From an uncultured Clostridium sp. (lineage in GTDB: Bacteria > Bacillota > Clostridia > Clostridiales > Clostridiaceae), in contig NZ_CAJURG010000004.1 of NCBI RefSeq assembly GCF_910588715.1, forward strand, positions 60,627-124,626: a stretch of DNA of 64,000 nt, read 5' to 3'. The notes below the pieces were generated by a model. That model was not told the DNA's origin. It saw only the letters and a program-made list of their open reading frames with translations, and searched no databases. The position numbers and the translations under genes are program-made. Below, piece by piece: positions 5,000-61,073 of the stretch. How positions within the stretch are numbered: the first letter of the stretch is position 1; every line of letters begins with the position of its first letter.

Positions 5000-5170
5000 A
5001 TCAACATCACTCCATTTTCATTTTAATTATTAATTATACCTTTTTTTTAAAATCAATACAACGAATTTGATTATTTTTTACATTTTTTCAATAAATAGTT
5101 GAAACTATTTATTAGTAATAAAAAAATTATGTAATTTAATACTATTATTTAATTATGATATTATTGTTTG

Positions 5171-5208
5171 AAAAAAGGATAGGAATTATTACTTAATCCC
5201 TACCCTTT
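5171..5208 (-). terminator. Rho-independent terminator of ileS
   Basis: Minus strand AGGGTAGGGATT-loop-AATTCCTATCCT (two G.U pairs) followed by TTTTTT, 15 nt after the ileS stop. Confidence 0.7.
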
Positions 5209-5223
5209 GTAACAAAGCTAAAA

Positions 5224-8200
5224 CTATCTAATCACTTCTACAGTCATATTTAACTTTTCACCATTTATAACTGTTTCTGAATAATCAGCTTCTTGATTGT
5301 AAACTATTTCTTGAGTTAAGGTTTCCTTCTTAATAACTTCATTAAACTTTTTAATTACATCTAATAACATTTCGTTATCTGATACATATAATTTAATTTT
5401 ATCTGCAACCTCAAACCCTTTATCTTTTCTCATATTTTGAATCTTAGAAATTATTTCTCTTAAATGACCTTCTTCTTTAAGTTCTTCTGAAATATGAGTA
5501 TCTAAAACAACACCAATTGAACCTTCACCAGCAAATGCATAACCCTCTAGCCCTTGCATAGTAACTAATAAGTTTTCCTTATTTAATTCAATTTCTGTTC
5601 CGTTAACATTAATAACAACAACTCCACCATTTTGAATAGTTTGAGCTAATTCCATTTGATTTTTTGTTGCTATTTCTTTTCTTATTCCAGGTATTAGCTT
5701 ACCATATGCTTTTCCTAGTACTGGCAGATTTGGCTTAATTTCAAAGTTAACATGAGTAGAAAGGTCAGCACCAAATTCAACAGCTTTTATATTTAACTCA
5801 TCTGTTATTATTTCTCCGTAATATTCTGGAAGTGAATCTGTAGAAACTAACATTTTAGAAAGTGGCTGTCTATTTTTAATATTAGCACCATTTCTTGCAC
5901 TTCTTCCAAGCTTAACTATTGTATAAGCTAAATCCATTTCCTTTTCTAAGTTTTTATCTATAGCACTTTCATCAACTTCTGGCCAACTACATAAGTGAAT
6001 GCTTTCTGGTGCATTTTCATCTAATCCAACCACTAAGTTTTGATAAATATTTTCTGTAATAAATGGAACAAATGGAGCTGCTACTTTAATTAAAGTAGTT
6101 AATACTTTATATAAAGTTACATAAGCACCTATTTTATCATCTGTTAATTCCTCAGACCAATATCTACCTCTATTTCTTCTTACATACCAGTTTGATAATT
6201 CATCAGTAAAACTTTCTATAGCTAATGCAGCTTGAGTTATTTGGTATGAATCAAGCATAGAATCAATATCTTTAACTAGTGTATTAAGCTTTGACATAAT
6301 CCATTTATCCATTACGTTTTCTGATACAAATTCACCATACTTTAATGGATTAAATTGATCTAATTCAGCATATAAAACATAGAATGAATAAACATTCCAT
6401 AATGTTCCCATGAATTTTCTTCCTGCTTCTCCAACATCATCTATAGAGAATCTTGTTGGTAACCAAGGAGCACTGGCAGTATAGAAATGCCATCTAGTAG
6501 CATCTGCACCTTGTGCATCTAATACTTTAAATGGATCTACAACATTACCCTTAGATTTTGACATCTTTAAACCTTTTTTATCAAGAACATGCCCTAAAAC
6601 TATACAGTTTTCAAACGGATTTCTATCAAATATAGCAGTTGAAATTGCAAGTAAAGTATAGAACCATCCTCTTGTTTGGTCAACAGCTTCTGATATAAAT
6701 TGAGCTGGGTAATTTTGATCAAATAATTCTTTATTTTCAAATGGATAATGTAATTGTGCAAACGGCATTGAACCTGAATCAAACCAACAGTCAATTACTT
6801 CATTAGTTCTAGTCATTTCTTTTCCACACTTTTCACATTTTAAGTGTACATTATCTATATATGGTTTGTGTAATTCTATATCATCCGGAACATTAATTCC
6901 CTTTTCTTTAAGTTCTGCAATGCTTCCTATACATTCTTTGTGTCCGCATTCACATCCCCAAATTGGAAGTGGAGTTCCCCAATATCTATCTCTTGAAATA
7001 CCCCAATCAATAACATTTTCTAAGAACTTACCAAATCTACCTGTTCTTATATTATCTGGATACCAATTAATTTTATTATTATTTTCTAAAAGCTTATCTC
7101 TTAATGTTGTCATTGCAACAAACCAGCTTTCTTTTGGATAATAAAGAAGTGGAGTGTCACATCTCCAACAATGTGGATATGAGTGTAAATGCTTTTCAGA
7201 TTTAAACAACTTATTGTTTTCTTCTAACCATTTACAAATACCTTCATCACATTTTTTAACGAACTTTCCAGCCCAAGGAGTAACATCTTCTACAAATCTA
7301 CCTTCTCTATCAACTAAGTTAATGAAAGTAATTCCATTAGCTTTTGCTACTAAACTATCGTCTTCACCATATGCAGGTGCTATATGAACTATACCTGTAC
7401 CGTCTGATAAAGTAACGTAATCACCATGAATTACTTCAAAAGCTTTTCCCTCTACTTTACCAAAAGGCATTAATTGTTCATATTTAGTTCCTAAAAGTTC
7501 AGCTCCAGAGAATTCTCTAACTATTTCGTAATCTTCTCCTAAAACCTTATCTGCTAAATCTTTAGCTAATATTAATATTTCATCTCCAACTTTTGCTTCT
7601 ATATAAGTATAAGCTTTGTTTATACATAAAGCTAAGTTTGAAGGTAATGTCCAAGGAGTTGTTGTCCAAGCTAATATGTACTTGTTATCTTCCCCTTCAA
7701 CTTTAAATTTAGCAATACAAGTTAAATCTTTAACATCTTTATATCCTTGTGCAACTTCGTGAGATGATAATGCTGTTCCACATCTTGGGCAATATGGCAT
7801 TACCTTGTGACCTTCATATAAAAGTCCTTTATCCCACATTTGTTTTAATGCCCACCAAACTGATTCAATATATGGATTATGATAAGTTACATATGGATTT
7901 TCCATATTAACCCAATAACCAATTTGATTAGTCATCTTTTCCCACATACTTACGTAAGTAAATACGCTATCCTTACATTCCTTAACGAATTTTTCTACGC
8001 CATATTCTTCGATTTGTTCTTTACCTGAAATTCCAAGCTTCTTTTCTATTTCAAGTTCTACAGGAAGACCATGAGTATCCCATCCTGCCTTTCTTATAAC
8101 TTTATACCCCTTCATAACCTTGTATCTTGGGATAATATCCTTCATAACTCTTGTTAATACGTGTCCAACGTGTGGCTTACCATTTGCTGTTGGAGGTCCA

Positions 8201-8334
8201 TCATAGAAAGTGAAATATTCACCATCTTGATTCATATCAAAATTCTTTTTTATAACATTTCTTGCAGTCCAAAGATTTGCTACTTCTTTTTCAAGACCAA
8301 CAAAACCATTTGGTAGTTCTACTTTTTTGTACAT
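5224..8334 (-). CDS. ileS: Isoleucine--tRNA ligase (long, about 1036 aa form)
   Basis: HIGH motif as [13 protein letters not shown] motif present, CP1 editing region, Zn-type CxxC pairs (CPRCGT, CWRCDT). Confidence 0.97.
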
Positions 8335-8407: not shown

Positions 8408-8665
8408 TAAAATAAAAAAAACTTCATCCCAAAAGGACGAAGTGAATTCGCTATACCACCTAAGGTTAATAAACTTATAATATTCTATAAGCTCTAAATT
8501 CAGATACTTTCATATCCTATCCCTTAACGCGGGATAACGTGATAGCTTAATTGTAAAAACTTTCAGCCTCAAACTCCTAGGTGATTTTCCTTAAGTTATC
8601 TTATGATTTTACACCAACCAATCACTCTCTTAAAAGAATAAACTAAAGTACTTATCCTAATCATA
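8408..8665 (-). promoter_or_regulatory. T-box leader (Ile specifier) with terminator/antiterminator
   Basis: Minus strand shows the stem I AGAGAG and GGTTGGTG elements, a candidate specifier AUC followed by A (..GCTATCACG..), the T-box sequence GGTGGTATAGCG, then the terminator CTTCGTCC-tttt-GGGATGAAG plus a T-run. Confidence 0.8.
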
Positions 8666-8680
8666 GTCTTTAATGAAATT

Positions 8681-8710
8681 ATTATATATTAAACAATTGT
8701 AATTTGTCAA
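8681..8710 (-). promoter_or_regulatory. Sigma-A-type promoter of the ileS T-box leader
   Basis: Minus strand TTGACA (8705-8710), 18 nt spacer, TATAAT (8681-8686). Confidence 0.6.
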
Positions 8711-8902
8711 TTGAACCTAAAATTTCATATTTATTTTTTACCTTTATATAAATAATTGTAATCAATTAATAATTGTTCTTATTTAATGTTGACTATTTTG
8801 ATATACTATGATTTAATATAGTTGTTGAAACGTATTACGCAAAATTTAATTAATAATTAATTTTTGTATTTCCTAATATCTTTGTATTTTGGAGGATTCG
8901 TT

Positions 8903-9115
8903 ATGGAAAATAACTTAAATGCTGATATCCTTGATAAAATTACAAAAGTCTGCACTTGTAAATCTATCTCTAGAGCTAAGATTAAAGAAACTATTAAAAA
9001 TGGTGCCCATACCGTTGAGGAAGTTTCTAAAATAACTGGTGCATGCACTGGAAGCTGTCATGGGTTTAGATGCAAATCAAAGATTCAGAGTTTAATCGAA
9101 GATTATTCAAAATAA
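8903..9115 (+). CDS. BFD-like (2Fe-2S)-binding domain protein
   Basis: 70 aa from ATG 8903 (GGAGGA RBS at 8891-8896; the tracked 8864 start is a TTG without RBS). Cys pattern CTC...(35 aa)...CTGSC...C is typical of BFD-like [2Fe-2S] domains. Confidence 0.7.
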   Translation: MENNLNADILDKITKVCTCKSISRAKIKETIKNGAHTVEEVSKITGACTGSCHGFRCKSKIQSLIEDYSK

Positions 9116-9151: not shown

Positions 9152-9182
9152 AAACCACTTACAATTGTAAGTGGTTTTTTAT
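9152..9182. terminator. Palindromic (potentially bidirectional) terminator
   Basis: AAACCACTTACA-at-TGTAAGTGGTTT followed by TTTTTT on the plus strand. It lies between convergent genes. Confidence 0.75.
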
Positions 9183-9269: not shown

Positions 9270-11063
9270 TTATTCTTTAAAATATTCAATAATACTTTCA
9301 ACTAATAAATTTATTTCTTCGTTTTCATTAAGTATAAAAACATTTTTGTTAAAATAATTATTTAAAATCTTTTTACATTTCTTTAACTCAATATTGCTTA
9401 CTTTATAATAATTATTTCCTGTTATTGACCATTTATTATTTTTTAACAAAGGAAATAATACAAGTGCTATAATCTTACCTTGAGTTAAGCTTTCAATATA
9501 AGAAATTGTTCTCTCTATATATTCAATTTCATCTGTAACATTTACACATAATATTATAGCATCGGGATTGCTAGCTAATAATAACTCATGTTGTGCTAAA
9601 GGATAAAACCCTATATTTCCACTAGTATATGGTATTGTTTGAGATTGAGATCCTACTAATATAATATCATTTTCTCCATTATCAATTTTCGAAAGTTTCT
9701 CATTAATAAATATTATAGATTCTTTTCCTCTTATATTGACTGTTGAATCATATCCTATTGGATAACAAAAATCCATTCCAAATAATAATGCTGATGGCTC
9801 AGTTCCTAATTGACCAATTTTATATCCTTTTTCTAACAAAGCTTTTCTTAAATTTAACTGCAATGTATATTTTCCTTGCTTAGAGCTTGTTCCAAATATA
9901 CCCAATACCGGTATAGATATTTCATGTAATTTATTCAAATTTTTATTAGAAATATTTTCTTCACAAACATAAGGATAATAAACCCAATTACCTTGTGATT
10001 TTAAAATTTTTAATAAATCTTCATATTTGTTCAAACTATCGAAAGCATATAAATTCTTTTTATATTCTATACATTTTTTTAATATATATATAATAAAATC
10101 TTCTTTAGCTAAATTTGATAATATTCTCGTATGACCTAATATAAATGTATCAAATTTATCATTCCAATTTATTTTTCTTAAATCTTGAACTAAAAACTTT
10201 TTATTATCAATAATTTGTGAACCAATATTACAAGTTAATCTATAATCATATATTCCACTAATATCAAACTTTAGCATATCCTTAAATCTTATTATGCTAT
10301 GTATCTCTTTATTAAAAGGAAAAATTATAGCATTATTTATTTCTCCAATTTTACTTAATGCCTCCTCCTCCTTAACTTTTAATACACTAATAGCACTATG
10401 TTCTAAAATATCCATAATTTCAGACTTAGATTTTATTTTCTTATTAATAAGATTTGAAATTTTCGCAGTAATATATGGTGCTGCAAAACTGGAACCAGAT
10501 ACATTTTTATAAGAATTATTTATCCATGGTAATCTTTGCTCTCTTCCTATTGCCAAAAAATTAACACTACTATTTTTGACCATGAAATAATCAGTTGGAT
10601 TAATGCAATCAATATTCCAATCAACTCCTATTACGGACTTATAAGCTGCTGGATATGAAATTGCACCATTATTATCAAATGCTGCAACTATAATGATTCC
10701 TTTTTCTATTAACCTATTACATATTTCTTCTAACTCAATTTTTTGAGTAGTTTCTGTTACTCCATTACTAATATGTATTATATCAATATCTAAATTTTCA
10801 TAAATATAGTTAAGTGCAAATATTAAATCCTCTGTTGTAGTTTCTTTGTAAGAATCAAATAATTTTATTATATATATTTCTGAGTTTGGAATTAGTTTTT
10901 TAATCTGATATGTAATTGCCGTACCATGCCCTACTGTATCTTTTATATCTTGATTTACAAAATATTTATCATCAAATTCTATATTAATTCCTTTAAATTT
11001 ATATTCTTTCAATTTTTCATGTTCTTCTTCTACTCCACTATCTATTATTGCAATTTTAACCAT
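9270..11063 (-). CDS. Subtilase (S8) domain fused to a C-terminal domain of about 330 aa with a DUF1611-like P-loop; putative leader peptidase/maturation protein of the RiPP cluster
   Basis: 597 aa. Asp-His-Ser triad motifs in order: IAIIDSGV, VGHGTA, GSSFAAPY. The C-terminal half carries GTSSKQGKYT, which resembles the GTDxxxGK motif I recall for DUF1611-type proteins. AGGGGA RBS; start lies 33 nt after the precursor stop. Confidence 0.75.
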   Translation of the reverse strand: MVKIAIIDSGVEEEHEKLKEYKFKGINIEFDDKYFVNQDIKDTVGHGTAITYQIKKLIPNSEIYIIKLFDSYKETTTEDLIFALNYIYENLDIDIIHISNGVTETTQKIELEEICNRLIEKGIIIVAAFDNNGAISYPAAYKSVIGVDWNIDCINPTDYFMVKNSSVNFLAIGREQRLPWINNSYKNVSGSSFAAPYITAKISNLINKKIKSKSEIMDILEHSAISVLKVKEEEALSKIGEINNAIIFPFNKEIHSIIRFKDMLKFDISGIYDYRLTCNIGSQIIDNKKFLVQDLRKINWNDKFDTFILGHTRILSNLAKEDFIIYILKKCIEYKKNLYAFDSLNKYEDLLKILKSQGNWVYYPYVCEENISNKNLNKLHEISIPVLGIFGTSSKQGKYTLQLNLRKALLEKGYKIGQLGTEPSALLFGMDFCYPIGYDSTVNIRGKESIIFINEKLSKIDNGENDIILVGSQSQTIPYTSGNIGFYPLAQHELLLASNPDAIILCVNVTDEIEYIERTISYIESLTQGKIIALVLFPLLKNNKWSITGNNYYKVSNIELKKCKKILNNYFNKNVFILNENEEINLLVESIIEYFKE

Positions 11064-11096
11064 AATATCCCCTAAATTTAAAATATTTAATTAAAA

Positions 11097-11180
11097 TTAG
11101 CAACTACAAGCAAACCATCCATTTTCTGCATATAAGCAAATTTTGTTTTGCTTTTTATTTTTTTTCACAAGCTTTTTCAT
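11097..11180 (-). CDS. 27-aa Cys-containing RiPP precursor peptide MKKLVKKNKKQNKICLYAENGWFACSC (not in the ORF track)
   Basis: Hand translation of the minus strand: ATG at 11178-11180, TAA at 11097-11099. AGGAGG lies 8 nt upstream of the ATG. Lys-rich N-terminal part, C-terminal part with 3 Cys plus Trp/Tyr/Phe. Sits between the ACP-like gene and the S8 fusion, co-directional with two rSAM/SPASM genes. Confidence 0.7.
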   Translation of the reverse strand: MKKLVKKNKKQNKICLYAENGWFACSC

Positions 11181-11363
11181 ACACCTTTCCTCCTTTCCTA
11201 TTAAATTTTAATTATTATTAAAATAATAAACCTGTTTTAATTAAGTCTTTATTTTTAATAAACAGGATAACTAAAAATACTAATTATAGATAATTAAATA
11301 TATAACTTTAAAGTTAATATCTTTAATTATCCTGTTTAATTCAAACTTTTTAAAATTTTATTC

Positions 11364-11585
11364 TTATAAATATTTTGAAATTATATTTTCAAAAGCTAAT
11401 ATACTATTAAACTCTTCAACTAATAATTTTTCATTTTCTATTTCTATTGAAAAAAAATCTTCTATTTCCATTAATATACTAATAAATGTTAAAGAATCCA
11501 TATCAATAGTTTCTTCTAAGTTTTCTTCATTTACCTCAATAGCATTATCTTTAAAAATCTGAATAATATTATTTTTAATGTCCAT
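11364..11585 (-). CDS. Acyl-carrier-protein-like small protein
   Basis: 73 aa, acidic. IDMDSLTFISILMEIEDFF reproduces the ACP helix II signature (D-S-L with the candidate phosphopantetheinyl Ser, followed by an acidic helix). Confidence 0.7.
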   Translation of the reverse strand: MDIKNNIIQIFKDNAIEVNEENLEETIDMDSLTFISILMEIEDFFSIEIENEKLLVEEFNSILAFENIISKYL

Positions 11586-11601
11586 ATTTTATTCTCCCTT
11601 A

Positions 11602-12939
11602 TCATATATCTATGCACTTATTAAAATTACTTGCATTTATAGCTTGCAATCTAAAAAGTTCAATAATTTCATATTTTCTACAAGCAATTTCTGATTTTTT
11701 CAGTTTTTCATAAGAGCATCCTACCATTCCACAAAAAGGTAATACGCTACAGTTAAAACAATCTTTCTCCCTTTTGTTTAAGCCTGTCCATAAATTTGAT
11801 TTTTTAATATTTACCTTATCTAATGAATTATTAATATTACCTATATTATTTAAATCTTTAAATTCTTCATCATATATTGCAAGTGTACATTTATTCAAAC
11901 TTCCATCATAGTTAACTATAAATCCATTTTTTTTACTTCCATCACAGATAGATTGATATTTATTATATTCATAAAAACGAGGTAATTGAATATTAAGTTC
12001 AGTTGCCCTATTCATCCATTTTAATAAAATATCACTTTCTTTATTTATAATTTCATTTTTTATATTCTCTATTTTAACTCCTCCCCAATCTTTTACTCTT
12101 TCTAAATATAAATAAAATCTTCTATCATCTCCAAATTCACTTTTATAAAATTTAAGAAAATCTTCTCTATATTTATCAATTTCTTTAGTTAAATTTACTC
12201 TTATAGCTATTTGAAAAACCTTTAATTTGATATTATCCCTAATATCACGCAAATTATTTATTATAGTATCAAATGATTCTTGTCCATTTTTAAATCGTCT
12301 ATATTTATTATGTGTTTTATTAATCCCATCAATAGTAATTTGATAAAATAAAATATTATTTCTAATTAATTTATTAAATGTAGAAATATCTAATTCTGAA
12401 CCATTAGTAGTAATTGAACCTATAAAATTCACCTTATTTTTTTTACATATATTTTTAATTTCACTAGAAATATTTATAACTTTATCTTTACATATTAATG
12501 GTTCTCCACCAAACCAATTTAAACTTAAATGCTTATAATTATATATATTTACCGAAACAAATTTCATTAATGACTTTATCACAGTATCACTCATATAATG
12601 TACTTGATCTTGTTGATAACAGTACTTACAATTAAAATTACAAGCATCAGTTGGAACTATTGTTAAATTCATAAAATCATATCCATAAATCGATTTTTCA
12701 ATTTCGTCTTTCACAATTTTCATTTCATTAATATCCGATTTAACTATAATCCCCGTATCTAACATTTTTTTTACTAAATTCTTATTGGTAATTTTTAAAT
12801 CATTATTCAATATTTTTAATACTTCATCTTCATTTTCTTTTGAAATCCTTAACATTTTATTTGAATATGTATTAATAATTAATAAATTATTATTAATATC
12901 TCTACATTTTATATTAAAAATTGATTTATTATAATTCAT
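11602..12939 (-). CDS. Radical SAM/SPASM peptide maturase with N-terminal RRE-like extension
   Basis: CNFNCKYC (CX3CX2C) at about residue 100 after an N-terminal extension. C-terminal auxiliary-cluster Cys motifs: CDGSKKNGFIVNYDGSLNKC and CFNCSVLPFCGMVGC...C. Start moved to ATG 12939 (GGGGGTG RBS), overlapping the upstream gene by 11 nt. Confidence 0.85.
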   Translation of the reverse strand: MNYNKSIFNIKCRDINNNLLIINTYSNKMLRISKENEDEVLKILNNDLKITNKNLVKKMLDTGIIVKSDINEMKIVKDEIEKSIYGYDFMNLTIVPTDACNFNCKYCYQQDQVHYMSDTVIKSLMKFVSVNIYNYKHLSLNWFGGEPLICKDKVINISSEIKNICKKNKVNFIGSITTNGSELDISTFNKLIRNNILFYQITIDGINKTHNKYRRFKNGQESFDTIINNLRDIRDNIKLKVFQIAIRVNLTKEIDKYREDFLKFYKSEFGDDRRFYLYLERVKDWGGVKIENIKNEIINKESDILLKWMNRATELNIQLPRFYEYNKYQSICDGSKKNGFIVNYDGSLNKCTLAIYDEEFKDLNNIGNINNSLDKVNIKKSNLWTGLNKREKDCFNCSVLPFCGMVGCSYEKLKKSEIACRKYEIIELFRLQAINASNFNKCIDI

Positions 12940-13963
12940 TACTTTTTTCACCCCCATATTTTCCTTGAAATAGTAAACAATTTTTTATTGGTAATGATAA
13001 ATTATCATGAAGTTCTTTATTCATTGCTCTACATGGTCTACATCTATTTTTATATAAACACTTATTACATAAGGAAGAATTATCATTACTATTATTTCTT
13101 AACTTATATAATACTTTTGAGTTTTTCCAGTAATCCTGTATATTTTCAAATGCTTCTCTATGATACAAATGAGTGCATGGTAAAAACTCCCCTTTTTTAG
13201 TTATTGCACAAAATGTTTTTCCTGCATTACATCCAGTCATTTTAGGTACATTACCATCAAAACAAAATGCCCCTAAAATATTATAGCAATTTTGTATAGT
13301 TATATACTTATCATTGTCATTTTTTTTAATAACTTCTCTAACTAATTCATAATCTGATTTAGTTAACTCTGAATTTATTTCTCCATAACTTGTTAATTTA
13401 TTAGCAACTATATTTATTTTAAATGCTTTAAATCTTTTAGCTAAATTAATCATATTAATTAAATCTTTAACATTATCATGTCTTGCTACCCAATTTATAG
13501 AATACTTTATATCTAATTTAAATAATAAATCAATAGCTTTCATTGTTATATCAAATCCATCTCTAGATTTATTGTGTATATATTTATTAGATCCATTTAA
13601 TGATAATAGGAATTCTACCTTGGTTCCCTCCAGCTTTTTCAAAAATATTGTGTTTATTCCATACCCACTTGTAAAACATACAGGAATAATATCTGCTTCA
13701 GAAATCCTCCAAATAATATCTATTATTCTACTATGAAGTAAAGGCTCTCCCCCATTTAAAACTATTTTCTTTACACCAATACTTTTTGCTTCATTTATTA
13801 TCTGTAAAATCTTTTCATAACTCATTTCACCCTGTCTTTTTAGATCTTTATAACATTGTTTACAATGTAATGGACAAATATCCGTTATTTCCACTTGTAG
13901 TAACTTTGGATTAATTAAATATTTATTTTTCTTTAAAAACTTTAATTCAGTTAAGGTATTCAT
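12929..13963 (-). CDS. Radical SAM/SPASM-like enzyme (short, no N-terminal recognition domain)
   Basis: 344 aa. CPLHCKQC (CX3CX2C) near residue 30. C-terminal Cys cluster: CNAGKTFCAITKKGEFLPC...CNKCLYKNRCRPC. Confidence 0.85.
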   Translation of the reverse strand: MNTLTELKFLKKNKYLINPKLLQVEITDICPLHCKQCYKDLKRQGEMSYEKILQIINEAKSIGVKKIVLNGGEPLLHSRIIDIIWRISEADIIPVCFTSGYGINTIFLKKLEGTKVEFLLSLNGSNKYIHNKSRDGFDITMKAIDLLFKLDIKYSINWVARHDNVKDLINMINLAKRFKAFKINIVANKLTSYGEINSELTKSDYELVREVIKKNDNDKYITIQNCYNILGAFCFDGNVPKMTGCNAGKTFCAITKKGEFLPCTHLYHREAFENIQDYWKNSKVLYKLRNNSNDNSSLCNKCLYKNRCRPCRAMNKELHDNLSLPIKNCLLFQGKYGGEKSNEL

Positions 13964-14009
13964 TGTTCTTCTCCCTAATTACTTATTAAATAATAATCTA
14001 TGTTAATTA

Positions 14010-15668
14010 TTAAATTACACACTTCAAACTTAAATTATCATAACTATCAATTTCTACTATTTCTCCCTTATCCATAACTATAATTTCATCATACCTTTGT
14101 AATAATTCTTTATTGATTTTATGAGTTATAGTTATTATTGTAAGGTCTTCTTGATTTAATAACTTATCTTCAATATCATATGCTGTTTTATTGTCTAGAG
14201 ATGAGGTTCCCTCATCTATTACTAATATAGGTGTATTTTGAATAATCGACCTAGCTATAGCTACCCTTTGCTTTTCACCACCAGATATATTTTTCCCATT
14301 TTCCCCTACTGAATAATCTAATCCATCTTCTAATTTATATAAAAATTTATTTACTCCACTTGCTTCTAATGCACTTTTTATCTTTTGATCATCAAATTCT
14401 TTCCAAAGTAAAATATTATTTTTTATACTATTATCAAACATATAAACATTTTGATGAATAATTGATAATAACTTACTTAAACTTTCATATTTAACCTTTT
14501 TAATTTCTTGATTATCTATTGTTATACTACCATTATAGGTATCATAATATCCTAAAATAAGCTTTATTAAAGTGCTTTTACCACAACCACTTTCTCCAAT
14601 AATGGCATACTTTTTATTCTTTTTAAATGTACAATTTATATTCTTTAATACGTTTTTGTCACTTTCATAACCAAAATCTAAATTTCTTATTTTAATTTCA
14701 TGATTAAATGAACCTACTTCTTTAAGATTATTACTACTATTTTCAGTATTTATTATATCTATAAGCTTTTTATTTACGCTTTTCATACCATTAATTTGAG
14801 TAGCTCTTTGAATTATCCACATTATAGGCCCATGAATTCCGTTTCCTAATTGTATTACAGCTATTAAGCTTCCTATAGATAAACTTCCCCTTAATATAAA
14901 AAATCCACTAATAATTAACCCAGTTATTTGACAACCTATAGCTAAAAATGATGAAATTGAATCGGTAAATGCTCTAATATTATCGCTTTTAAACCTATAA
15001 TTTGAAAGAGTAATATTTTTTTTATTAAACTCTTTATTTATGATTTTATTTAAGTTATAAGATTTAATTACCTCATAACCTAAAAACATATCTTTTATTA
15101 TGTTTGTGAATACACCTAATTTAGTAGATAATTCTAGTTGATTTTTATCTATTATTTTACTAAATATAATTGGCACTACTAACATTAACATGGCAGTTAA
15201 AAATAAAGATAATGTAACCCATACATTTAAAGATAAAAGAATTATAACTGTTCCAATAAACATAACTATATAACCAATCATTAATATTATTGGATTTATA
15301 TAATTATTTTCTACTAAAGAAATATCATTAGTTAAATGTGAAATATACTCTGCTGTATTATGAGAAGAAAAATCTTTATATCCTTTTTTAAATAATCCCT
15401 TAAATAAATCTTCTCTTAGTTTACTTACAGTTTTTTGTAAATACTTAGCATAAGTTGCACCTGTTAAATACTCAAAAAAGCTAAGAGTTAACGAATATAA
15501 AATAATAAATATAGCTAACCTTGCAAATTTATCAACATCACCATTCATTACAGTATCAACAATTTGTTGTAATAATAATGCAATAAAAACATACATAAGC
15601 GAAGTAGTAACTTTAAAAATTACAGTTAAACTTAATAATATTTTATATTTTAAAATATATTTTTTCAT
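14010..15668 (-). CDS. ABC exporter, fused permease/ATPase (no N-terminal C39 peptidase domain)
   Basis: 552 aa. About six N-terminal TM helices, Walker A GESGCGKST, signature ISGGEKQR, Walker B LVIDEGTS. Confidence 0.9.
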   Translation of the reverse strand: MKKYILKYKILLSLTVIFKVTTSLMYVFIALLLQQIVDTVMNGDVDKFARLAIFIILYSLTLSFFEYLTGATYAKYLQKTVSKLREDLFKGLFKKGYKDFSSHNTAEYISHLTNDISLVENNYINPIILMIGYIVMFIGTVIILLSLNVWVTLSLFLTAMLMLVVPIIFSKIIDKNQLELSTKLGVFTNIIKDMFLGYEVIKSYNLNKIINKEFNKKNITLSNYRFKSDNIRAFTDSISSFLAIGCQITGLIISGFFILRGSLSIGSLIAVIQLGNGIHGPIMWIIQRATQINGMKSVNKKLIDIINTENSSNNLKEVGSFNHEIKIRNLDFGYESDKNVLKNINCTFKKNKKYAIIGESGCGKSTLIKLILGYYDTYNGSITIDNQEIKKVKYESLSKLLSIIHQNVYMFDNSIKNNILLWKEFDDQKIKSALEASGVNKFLYKLEDGLDYSVGENGKNISGGEKQRVAIARSIIQNTPILVIDEGTSSLDNKTAYDIEDKLLNQEDLTIITITHKINKELLQRYDEIIVMDKGEIVEIDSYDNLSLKCVI

Positions 15669-15708
15669 ATTCCCTCCCTAATAATACTTTTTTAATTATT
15701 ACTTTTAT

Positions 15709-16767
15709 TTAATAATTTTCTAATATAAATTTTTCCATAATCTCTTTTACTTTTGATAAGACAATTCTTTCATTTTCATGAAAATCAATTAAATTTTTTA
15801 CAACTACATCAATATTTTTTCCGTTCCCATTTAAGTCATATTTAAGTGCTAAATTAAAGGCTATATATAATTTATTCGTTATATACTTATCTAATAAAAC
15901 AATATTATTTAAAGTAATATTATTAATTTTAAATAAATAATTAATTCTTTCATATAATATTTCTCTATAATCTATAATTTTCCTAATGTTAGTAGAATAA
16001 AAATACTCCTTGTCAGAATAATTATTTAATAAAATTTTTTCACCTGCATTTATTAAATCTTGTATACAAGCTAAATACCCATCATAAAACTCTACATCAT
16101 TCTTTAAATTATTATTTGTATATTTATATTTTGTTTCATTACATAATTCTAGAATATCATAGTACAACAAAAATATATTATCATCATAACTATATCCATT
16201 TTTCACCTTTATAAGATTGATTGGATAGTGATATTCTCTTTTATATAACAAAGTTTGTCCAATTTTATTTATATCTATTTTATCTAAATAAGAATAAGCT
16301 TTTTCTATATCTATATATGGTATTTCTTCAATGTCCCAACCTTTTTTCCCAAGAATAGGACATAAAAATACTTTTTTAATATCATCATATCCGAATATAA
16401 TCAATTCATGTATATATAATTCTTCAGTAGTATTCTCTACTCCTAAAATAGAATAATTGCATTCTAAAATAATATAATTATTTTCTTGAATACTTTGTTT
16501 AATGAAATTAATAATTTTATTAGATTTTATTTCTTTGTGTAAAAAACCCTTTATATTCAAAATATCATTATAAACACTAAGTTGATTATATATCTTACCT
16601 TTAACACCAAAAAAAACATTTCCATTACCATCAGCATAAATCTTATTATATTTTTCAAATTTCCAATTTTTCAAATTATCATATGCTTCTATTATGGCAA
16701 ACCTAAAAAAACTCCAGCATTCTGTTTCCAATCTATTCTTTAATGATATAGGTAGAACTTTTTTCAT
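15709..16767 (-). CDS. Hypothetical 352-aa protein, first gene of the RiPP operon (possible papain/BtrH-like fold, weak)
   Basis: GGAGGA RBS, no TM or signal peptide. N-terminal Cys (LETECWSF) and later His-Asp (IHELIIFGYDD) are spaced as in Cys-His hydrolase/acyltransferase folds. No motif I can assign with certainty. Confidence 0.6.
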   Translation of the reverse strand: MKKVLPISLKNRLETECWSFFRFAIIEAYDNLKNWKFEKYNKIYADGNGNVFFGVKGKIYNQLSVYNDILNIKGFLHKEIKSNKIINFIKQSIQENNYIILECNYSILGVENTTEELYIHELIIFGYDDIKKVFLCPILGKKGWDIEEIPYIDIEKAYSYLDKIDINKIGQTLLYKREYHYPINLIKVKNGYSYDDNIFLLYYDILELCNETKYKYTNNNLKNDVEFYDGYLACIQDLINAGEKILLNNYSDKEYFYSTNIRKIIDYREILYERINYLFKINNITLNNIVLLDKYITNKLYIAFNLALKYDLNGNGKNIDVVVKNLIDFHENERIVLSKVKEIMEKFILENY

Positions 16768-60300: not shown

Positions 60301-61073
60301 TAATTATAATCACTATTAAAGGCATCTAAATATGGCTCTAAACCATCAGTATCATTAATTATATCAATTGCTTTTCTATACATATTTAAAAATCCTGATA
60401 ATTCTACTTTTAAGCTTTCTCTTAGAACACTTACCCACTCACTATTATCAAGCTCTTCTAAAGTACTAATATTGAATGCTTCAGCCTTTTCAATAAGCCA
60501 TTTTTCTGGCCAAGGCCCACTCATAGAAAATCTATATAAAGAAAGTATCATTTCTTTTAATTTTTCATCATCCTTAGAACCACTATATGCTTCTATTAAT
60601 TCCTTAAAGTTTTCATTTTCTTCTTCGTAGTATTCTTCAAAAAGCTCCTCAATTATTTCATTTTTCATTAAACTTGCTTCTGTTTCATCACTAATTCTAA
60701 AACTAGGATCTAAGTCTATAGTATAAAAATAATTTTTAATTACATCTAAACAAAAAGAATGCATAGTAGTAATATTTGCTCTACCTAATAAAGTAAGTTG
60801 CCTTTGAAGATTTTTAGAGTTAGGCTTTTTCTCTAATTCTTTAGATATAGCTGCTGCTATTCTCTCCCTCATTTCTGATGCTGCTGCACTTGTAAATGTA
60901 ACAACTAAAAGCTTATCAATATCCACAGGAGTTTCTTCATTTGTTATAATTCTTATGATTCTTTCAACTAAAACAGCAGTCTTTCCTGAGCCAGCAGCTG
61001 CTGCTACAAGTAAGTTACAATTTCTTGTTTCTATTGCTTGAAGTTGTTCATTTGTCCATTTAGTCTCTCCCAT
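57315..61073 (-). CDS. addA: ATP-dependent helicase/nuclease subunit A
   Basis: UvrD-type motifs ([16 protein letters not shown]) and a C-terminal RecB-type nuclease (GIIDCFFEE...LLDYKTD). Start ATG 61073 (GAGGAG RBS) overlaps the addB end. Confidence 0.95.

Follow-up and report, generated by a model that had tools for sequence, protein, structure and literature searches.

A short gene missed by annotation as the probable substrate peptide gene of a widespread radical SAM peptide-modification cluster in Firmicutes

On the contig of an uncultured gut Clostridium considered here, the interval between the gene of an acyl carrier protein (ACP)-like protein and that of an S8 protease fusion holds a 27-codon open reading frame (ORF), and the question raised by this locus is whether so short an ORF is a gene at all and, if it is, what its peptide is for. 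The stretch of DNA analysed, referred to as the window, is 64,000 nucleotides (nt) long (NZ_CAJURG010000004.1, positions 60,627 to 124,626), and the ORF occupies its positions 11180..11097 on the minus strand. As judged from related loci, it proved to be a conserved coding gene under selection which co-occurs with one conserved cassette. Missed by annotation pipelines, it is the substrate peptide gene of a widespread peptide-modification cluster of gut and soil Firmicutes, and its product is, with high confidence, a genuine precursor of a peptide made on ribosomes and modified after translation (a RiPP).

The precursor ORF, its ribosome-binding site and its absence from annotation

The sequence-only reading of this DNA had claimed an unannotated minus-strand ORF of 27 amino acids (aa), with AGGAGG 8 nt upstream and a TAA stop 33 nt before the next gene, and each of these elements was recovered on re-reading. 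The gene reads ATG AAA AAG ... TGC TAA, that is 27 codons and a stop codon (11099..11097), and translates into MKKLVKKNKKQNKICLYAENGWFACSC. Its Shine-Dalgarno sequence AGGAGG (11194..11189, minus strand) is separated from the ATG by 8 nt (aaaggtgt). The ACP-like gene (11585..11364) lies 183 nt upstream, while 33 nt separate the stop codon from the ATG (11063) of the gene encoding the 597-aa S8 fusion.

The first alternative to be weighed is that the ORF arose by chance in the AT-rich DNA between two genes. Short ORFs (20-30 aa) are frequent here, the same 3.4 kb containing 33 ORFs of at least 20 aa of which three others are exactly 27 aa long, so that the length of the ORF by itself is not above chance; the peptide, moreover, has no database match. 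What places the ORF above chance is the rarity of its ribosome-binding arrangement together with the strong conservation of its family, presented below. With its two strands taken together, the 64-kb window (26% GC) has AGGAGG-N5-10-ATG at only six sites; four precede ORFs of 165-1069 aa and one belongs to the precursor ORF.

Its unannotated status was likewise borne out. The GenBank entries of the ACP-like protein (MCI9303725) and of the S8 protein (MCI9303726), which come from an uncultured gut Clostridium, bear consecutive accessions, so that no annotated gene stands between the two, and the exact 27-aa sequence had no match in a collection of ~15 billion proteins. A Pfam and NCBIfam profile search with the peptide gave no match either, even at E<=10. 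The other family members are in the same situation, nine of ten short peptides from other genomes being absent from the ~15-billion-protein collection and the single one present being a 44-aa variant named 'hypothetical protein'. Prodigal-type gene callers apply a minimum gene length of 90 nt and the family ORFs, stop codon included, measure 78-90 nt, which would explain a systematic omission of these precursors from annotation.

Conservation of the ORF in related loci

The comparative set consisted of 80 genomic loci encoding homologues of the S8/DUF1611 fusion (33-47% identity) from Lachnospiraceae, Oscillospiraceae, Paenibacillus, Tumebacillus, Sutcliffiella, Lutispora and others. At 90% clustering, over 1000 distinct homologues of the fusion are known from Clostridia, Bacilli and related groups, among them species of the human and animal gut. 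Three cassette loci (L046, L076 and L080) belong to metagenome-assembled genomes labelled Alphaproteobacteria, Paludibacteraceae or Bacteroides, which horizontal transfer or binning contamination could explain.

A scan for small ORFs upstream of the fusion gene returned relatives of the window peptide, such as MKKLSKKKVDQFKVVLYGENGNCGIC (L001), MKKHLAKPQKKVSNVSLFIENGILNCCR (L003), MKKLTKKAKSKKNVVLYGEKNGFIACC (L008) and MKKLRKNRNILKVSLYVENGVFACCW (L014), and profile searches of 42,257 six-frame segments yielded 53 family members in 43 of the 80 loci. The sequence-only reading was to be abandoned if homologous clusters had no conserved small ORF at the equivalent position, and these numbers clearly support it. 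In every case (53/53) the related ORF has the orientation of the fusion gene, and 35 of these ORFs end less than 400 nt upstream of it. When the 2128 six-frame segments of the window were scored with a family hidden Markov model (HMM) from which the window had been left out, the window ORF came first at E=3.5e-10, the next best segment reaching only 0.45; the Lys-rich composition of AT-rich DNA is therefore not the cause of the match. Among the orthologues of L001, L002, L005 and L006, the ratio of nonsynonymous to synonymous changes (pN/pS) was 0.08-0.29, with changes concentrated at third codon positions, and the flanking spacers of the same orthologues were barely alignable.

The closest relative of the window cluster, L081 (S8 52% identical), carries two identical precursor copies, MKKRLVKPSKSANTVVLYMENGWLGCC. 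At this locus (L081:7611-7939) public annotation has instead a spurious ORF of 45 aa, which overlaps the first of the two copies in a different frame. Longer tandem arrays were found in L009 (three genes, 5141-5522) and in L014 (four to five genes, 6457-6885), in which the leaders are identical or near-identical and the cores differ at one to three residues; in L009 the differences are confined to the tail (KEKGIWCC, KEKGVHCC and KEKGVVCC). One of the L014 copies apparently has a non-ATG start (LKKLKK...).

These arrangements bear on a second alternative, according to which the ORF is not a substrate but a regulatory upstream ORF, i.e. a leader peptide or attenuator acting on the downstream S8 gene. 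Its position immediately upstream of the S8 gene is what such an element would have, as are the long hairpin upstream of it and, in some strains, a hairpin directly after its stop codon. On the other hand, amino-acid-level conservation joined to a hypervariable Cys-bearing C-terminus fits a substrate, the gene occurs in tandem (up to four to five copies in L014), family ORFs lie kilobases away from the S8 gene in nine loci, and the ORF has no run of regulatory codons. A regulatory role is consequently judged very improbable, and chance origin, against which stand the perfect and rare Shine-Dalgarno sequence, the HMM score, the complete strand concordance (53/53) and a pN/pS well below 1, more improbable still. 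The pN/pS values, the leave-window-out HMM and the strand concordance of the 53 relatives effectively exclude both.

Leader, core and cysteines of the peptide family

Column statistics were obtained from 41 peptides of the family. Their N-terminus follows M-K-K-L-x-K-[KP], and the leader contains 37% K/R and 1.7% D/E and ends in the motif [VI]-x-L-[YF], with Val or Ile at P4 in 32/41, Leu at P2 in 34/41 and, at P1, Tyr in 34 and Phe in 7. A Glu follows this Tyr/Phe within six residues in 39/41 relatives, usually as E-x-G; past the leader, conservation is highest for the Tyr and this Glu. In the hypervariable tail, aromatic residues change from one relative to another, but exactly two Cys are present in 34/41, as CC, CxC or CxxC, at or near the C-terminus. 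The resulting motif, MKKLxKK...[VI]xL[YF]-x-E-x-G...C(x)C, is not covered by curated models, any more than the enzymes of the cassette are, and makes these clusters minable.

From these columns, the boundary between leader and core is inferred to lie near Tyr17 in the window peptide. Hydrophobic P4, Leu at P2 and an aromatic P1 would correspond to the classical preference of subtilisins. The putative leader (residues 1-17, 11180..11130, minus strand) is MKKLVKKNKKQNKICLY, Lys-rich and ending in the conserved [VI]-x-L-[YF], and the putative core of about 10 residues (residues 18-27, 11129..11100, minus strand) is AENGWFACSC, which contains the conserved Glu19 and Gly21 and the two donor candidates Cys25 and Cys27. 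The division into a 13-residue leader and a 14-residue C-terminal part, as proposed from the sequence alone, thus has to be shifted, the conserved leader running to about Tyr17. The same reading had counted all three Cys among the typical donors and acceptors of rSAM cross-linking. The two C-terminal ones, conserved as a pair in 34/41 relatives, are candidate donors; Cys15, which occupies the variable P3 position and has a counterpart in the leader of only 3/41 relatives, is an unlikely conserved donor.

Radical SAM enzymes of the cassette

The cassette is made of co-directional minus-strand genes (16767..9270), among which a radical S-adenosylmethionine (rSAM)/SPASM enzyme of 451 aa (12957..11602) has homologues in 67 of the 80 loci and is the candidate maturase. 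The AlphaFold2 model of this protein, calculated with 50 homologues, has a predicted local distance difference test score (pLDDT) of 89.9. In it, three to four strands and then three helices make up residues 9-91, an arrangement predicted to be like that of a RiPP recognition element (RRE). The best Foldseek matches were to CteB (5WHY/5WGG, E ~2e-17) over the full length of the protein (465-474 aligned columns), followed by anSME, TigE, ChlB, SuiB and SkfB. The leader had initially been regarded as very short for an RRE-dependent system; the confidently predicted N-terminal strand/helix domain and the full-length alignment with CteB answer this objection. The CxxxCxxC motif (C106/C110/C113) and seven Cys of the SPASM region are invariant or nearly so. 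The gene content that defines ranthipeptide and sactipeptide clusters, namely an RRE and a SPASM rSAM enzyme with auxiliary-cluster Cys beside a Cys-containing precursor, was accordingly found in the window, as known from genes and models.

At the level of profiles, the best scores of the maturase were to TIGR04463 (186 bits for a cutoff of 525), Clo7bot (TIGR04334, 162/600) and CefB (124/600), followed by PapB (113/340), CcpM (TIGR04068, 73/500), SCIFF (TIGR03974, 62.6/425) and QhpD (50/453). Ten homologues of the enzyme scored 150-217 bits against cutoffs of 525-600, none of them reaching a curated NCBIfam cutoff.

A second rSAM/SPASM enzyme of 344 aa (13963..12929, minus strand), whose gene overlaps that of the maturase by 29 nt, is accessory and weakly similar to PqqE (6C8V, 1e-11) and to AhbD/NirJ2, its nearest matches. 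It is present in 13 of the 80 loci; besides the window, L001, L002, L005-L007, L025, L026, L031, L051, L067 and L069 carry it. The precursors of these clusters all end exactly in Cys (8) or Trp (5), compared with 22/43 elsewhere; the corresponding hypergeometric probability of ~8e-4, calculated by hand and ignoring phylogeny, makes this association only a hint. A PqqE-like Glu-Tyr cross-link as the chemistry of the whole family was rejected, the PqqE-like enzyme being found in just 13/80 clusters.

The nature of the modification is where a third alternative has to be considered, that of a genuine precursor which receives something other than a thioether: an rSAM-made cross-link of the C-C or C-O kind at Tyr17, Trp22 or Phe23, as in a cyclophane or a PqqE-like Glu-Tyr bond, an oxidative decarboxylation at the C-terminus (MftC-like), an epimerisation, or Cys that bind metal or form disulfides. 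The PqqE (6C8V, 1e-11) and AhbD/NirJ2 likeness of the second enzyme, the Tyr and Glu that are most conserved after the leader, the C-terminal Cys or Trp of all precursors in second-rSAM clusters, and the position of the rSAM family far below every curated thioether-maturase cutoff are in agreement with such chemistries. Against them, the universally present rSAM enzyme is structurally nearest to the thioether synthase CteB and its best profiles (TIGR04463, Clo7bot, CefB, PapB) are all those of Cys-rich peptide maturases; furthermore, the two C-terminal Cys are the most constant feature of the core (34/41) whereas its aromatics vary, and the PqqE-like enzyme is missing in 67/80 clusters. Taken jointly, these non-thioether possibilities are considered unlikely. 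By analogy with the nearest enzymes, formation of a Cys thioether in the window peptide is slightly favoured.

Protease fusion, carrier protein, BtrH-like protein and exporter

The gene directly downstream of the precursor (11063..9270, minus strand) encodes, according to profile and structure matches, a 597-aa fusion of an S8 protease with a TIGR04066/DUF1611 P-loop domain of DgcN fold. The S8 domain starts at residue 2, with neither signal nor pro-peptide, and its best NCBIfam family is QhpE (125 bits for a cutoff of 165). Its catalytic triad D8/H46/S192 and the P-loop G391-x5-G397-K398 of the second domain are invariant in 22 homologues. The C-terminal domain (358 residues) aligns with the whole TIGR04066 model at 100 bits (cutoff 200) and matches PF07755, and its model (pLDDT 90) retrieved 2G0T, 2OBN and 7XRJ in Foldseek searches, with E values of 4e-13 to 3e-10 and template modelling (TM) scores of 0.6-0.7. 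The first two are DUF1611 structures and the third was deposited as 'N-acetyltransferase DgcN'. The domain is thus modelled with a DUF1611/DgcN fold and a conserved P-loop, and its catalytic activity is putative.

The ACP-like protein (73 aa, 11585..11364, minus strand) has a DSL serine motif and matches PF00550 at 23.9 bits and, weakly, TIGR04069 at 20.6 bits (cutoff 70). Homologues were found in 68/80 loci, almost always co-directional, and 66 of 74 copies have [DES]-S-[LIVF], the Ser of this motif being a candidate site of phosphopantetheine attachment.

A protein of 352 aa (16767..15709, minus strand) was assigned to a papain-fold family related to BtrH_N and C39, with Cys17 and His120 as the residues of interest. 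It had no direct family match and its homologue search in a large database returned only itself; the family was recovered by a local iterated HMM over the fetched loci, in which later-iteration hits drifting into rSAM ORFs were ignored. The family so obtained is present in ~60 loci and very divergent (11-23% identity). Eight of 34 members match Pfam BtrH_N (best 1.8e-8) and three of 34 match Peptidase_C39_2, while His120 is kept in 31/34 and Gly126 in 34/34, within an H[DE]xLIYGYD motif. The putative nucleophile Cys17 is kept only in a subset formed by the window and its nearest relatives, so that most members may be pseudo-enzymes. BtrH, CtaG and AdmF are papain-fold transacylases acting on carrier-protein thioesters (PMC7183216).

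The 552-aa ABC exporter (15668..14010, minus strand; homologues in 71/80 loci) consists of ABC_membrane and ABC_tran only and has no C39 peptidase domain. Given an S8 domain without signal peptide and an exporter without C39 domain, leader removal would probably take place in the cytoplasm before export, for which QhpE is a precedent.

Proposed pathway and points that weigh on it

The explanation that best accounts for the cassette as a whole, a secreted rSAM-modified RiPP made along the following route, is considered likely. The CteB-like rSAM/SPASM maturase would bind the leader (about residues 1-17) through its RRE-like N-terminal domain and would then link Cys25 and/or Cys27 to an acceptor situated N-terminally, since both Cys stand at the very end of the peptide. 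Glu19 is the preferred acceptor candidate because it is near-invariant and because Cys-to-Asp/Glu thioethers are formed by PapB (PMC12373016) and by QhpD; a macrocycle of 7-9 residues would result. An optional, lineage-specific change may come from the accessory second rSAM enzyme, the C-terminal residue being a possible site. Next, the QhpE-like S8 domain would cut the leader in the cytoplasm, probably after Tyr17, and release AENGWFACSC. A more speculative step is that the new N-terminus could be acylated or otherwise capped by the DgcN-fold domain together with the ACP-like carrier and the BtrH-like protein, a conceivable route being acyl transfer from a phosphopantetheinyl thioester. The ABC transporter would export the product. 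By analogy, capping of the core N-terminus is a doubtful step. It is similarly tentative to propose that the cassette couples leader removal and carrier-protein-dependent capping in one enzyme, or that this machinery cyclises the peptide.

Several observations weigh against this pathway or parts of it. None of the cassette components reaches the threshold of a curated family, and the cassette is known here from sequences and predicted structures, its chemistry being extrapolated from distant relatives. The within-species variants L083-L087 are identical in the ORF and the upstream spacer and hence give no selection signal for the exact window peptide. The spacing from Glu to Cys ranges from 2 to 13 residues among relatives. 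In PapB, QhpD, CteB and the sactipeptides, the acceptor is C-terminal to the Cys and the window peptide would need an N-terminal one; the streptococcal NxxC type has its acceptor N-terminal to the donor Cys and so resembles the topology proposed. Regarding the capping machinery, the putative nucleophile Cys17 of the BtrH-like protein is kept in just a subset of loci (window, L081, L001, L005, L042 and L038), and the cluster contains no ACP-loading enzyme. Finally, the window shows no evident gene for immunity or regulation.

As to function, an antimicrobial or competition peptide is the favoured role because of the precedent of SacP23 (see below) and of the diversified tandem cores. Signalling is a possible alternative, kept in view because of the small size of the peptide and because no immunity gene is evident.

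A concrete 10-residue product can be sought at [M+H]+ 1087.397 minus 2.016 per cross-link. The unexplained conserved trio of ACP-like, DgcN-fold and BtrH-like proteins may represent a new RiPP tailoring chemistry. If the pathway is correct in all its steps, the product would be a thioether macrocycle of 8-10 residues, capped at its N-terminus and 'reverse' in topology (the acceptor N-terminal of the donor Cys), and would constitute a new RiPP subclass, the precursors of which would be systematically invisible to annotation, gene and stop codon together measuring less than 90 nt. The cassette is seemingly common in gut Clostridia, Bacillus, Paenibacillus and Lactococcus.

Spacer elements and flanking genes

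A consensus scan of the DNA that separates the ACP-like gene from the precursor gave a promoter-like TTTAAA-18-TATAAT (11312..11283, minus strand; 10/12 matches), for which the evidence is weak, this AT-rich DNA having no more such matches than its shuffles. The site is enclosed by an imperfect inverted repeat (11252..11345) with 37-nt arms of 78% complementarity, which as RNA would form a 25-bp hairpin; the fold of this region has z = -3.5, and 0/200 shuffles were equally stable. A third AAACAGG copy at ~11227-11240 could offer the second repeat arm an alternative pairing partner, and a U-rich tract comes after it. An Rfam scan of 11097-11363 found no known RNA, and a known non-coding RNA in this interval was rejected accordingly.

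In other strains of the same species (L084, 1180-1225, and L085-L087) a 39-nt insertion directly follows the precursor stop (window ~11096/11097). Situated between the precursor and protease genes, it folds into a hairpin with 16 perfectly paired bp, AAUUAAGAUAGGAUA-AAUUA-UAUCCUAUCUUAAUU, and is absent from the window and from L083, the junction being flanked by TAATTT direct repeats. This hairpin could act as a stabiliser or as a partial terminator setting the precursor-to-enzyme ratio.

Housekeeping genes flank the cassette, namely those of a BFD-like ferredoxin, of isoleucyl-tRNA synthetase (preceded by a T-box leader) and of an rRNA-methyltransferase-like protein. The BFD-like [2Fe-2S] ORF (8864-9115, plus strand) and the S8 gene are convergent, with a near-palindromic terminator-like hairpin (9152-9177) between the two; the ORF has 83 aa from a TTG, and gene calls in related contigs give it 70 aa. 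The T-box leader (8430-8673, minus strand; Rfam RF00230, 118.6 bits) lies upstream of the isoleucyl-tRNA synthetase gene (8334..5224) and is ordinary; its accompanying elements are a hairpin of terminator type (8443..8421) and, at 8710..8681, a perfect TTGACA-18-TATAAT promoter.

Comparison with known systems

Searches of the literature on DUF1611, COG3367, TIGR04463 and ACP with ranthipeptides found no description of this cassette. The closest named system is the CLI_3235/CcpM 'Cys-rich peptide' maturation system, a cassette which, following Haft, is said to comprise a TIGR04065 precursor, a TIGR04068 rSAM enzyme, TIGR04066, a TIGR04069 ACP-related protein, a subtilase and an ABC transporter. 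The window cassette has the same list of parts (precursor, rSAM/SPASM, TIGR04066-type, ACP-related, subtilase and ABC proteins). Its scores of 73/500 for TIGR04068, 100/200 for TIGR04066 and 20.6/70 for TIGR04069 nevertheless designate homologues and not members, and its rSAM enzyme is nearer to TIGR04463/Clo7bot than to CcpM. In addition, the protease and the TIGR04066 protein are fused in the window, the BtrH_N-like protein is an extra conserved member, and the core has ~10 aa with two conserved Cys compared with ~40 aa with many Cys in CLI_3235. The TIGR04065 model (cutoff 26) gave no match at E<=10 to the window peptide, to that of L081 or to other relatives, whereas the SacP23 control scored 40.2 bits.

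SacP23 of Paenibacillus polymyxa is the sole studied example of the CLI_3235/CcpM system; it is antimicrobial against Gram-positives, its structure is unsolved and, once purified, it proved resistant to Edman degradation, a behaviour compatible with an N-terminus that is blocked (PMC10731318). Its leader starts with MRKLVKR and that of the window peptide with MKKLVKK, and in both an aromatic residue precedes the Cys-bearing core, but only these first seven leader residues can be aligned. Matching the reported 3404-Da mass of SacP23 to its fragments, so as to locate the cleavage site, gave many equally good solutions, none of which starts after Phe18. A survey of a related Roseburia cluster did not find the structural gene (PMC4573289).

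With CteA/CteB (thermocellin), PapA/PapB (freyrasin) and SCIFF, the window system shares an rSAM/SPASM enzyme with a predicted N-terminal RRE and auxiliary-cluster Cys, and Cys donors in the core; an acidic residue as candidate acceptor is a further likeness to PapB (PMC12373016). Its core is much shorter than those of ranthipeptides and sactipeptides, and the ACP, DgcN-fold and BtrH-like components are absent from those systems. In mature sactipeptides the Cys sulfur is joined to the C-alpha of the acceptor residue, in ranthipeptides to its C-beta or C-gamma. Compared with SCIFF, the precursor has 27 aa and three Cys instead of ~45 aa and six Cys, and the maturase reaches 62.6 of the 425 bits of the family cutoff.

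On the side of the putative capping enzymes, an ACP-like protein with conserved Ser next to a BtrH_N-like protein with Cys17/His120 recalls BtrH (butirosin) and CtaG (closthioamide) (PMC7183216), and the DgcN-fold domain, as in 7XRJ, occurs together with a peptide N-terminus that the fused protease would expose. The window system differs from BtrH, CtaG, DgcN and the N-acylated RiPPs in having no sequence-level family membership, acyl-ACP loading enzyme or GNAT. Goadvionins are N-acylated RiPPs.

The likeness to QhpC/QhpD/QhpE, which mature the gamma subunit of quinohemoprotein amine dehydrogenase, is one of logic, with a Cys-to-Glu/Asp cross-link introduced by an rSAM/SPASM enzyme, leader removal by an intracellular subtilisin-like protease and ABC export. 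The scores for QhpE (125/165) and QhpD (50/453) are below their cutoffs, no dehydrogenase subunits are encoded near the window cassette, and the product would be a free small peptide and not an enzyme subunit. Taken together, these comparisons suggest, by analogy, a system that works like a ranthipeptide/sactipeptide pathway, with QhpCDE as its nearest parallel in logic, and that stands outside every curated family.

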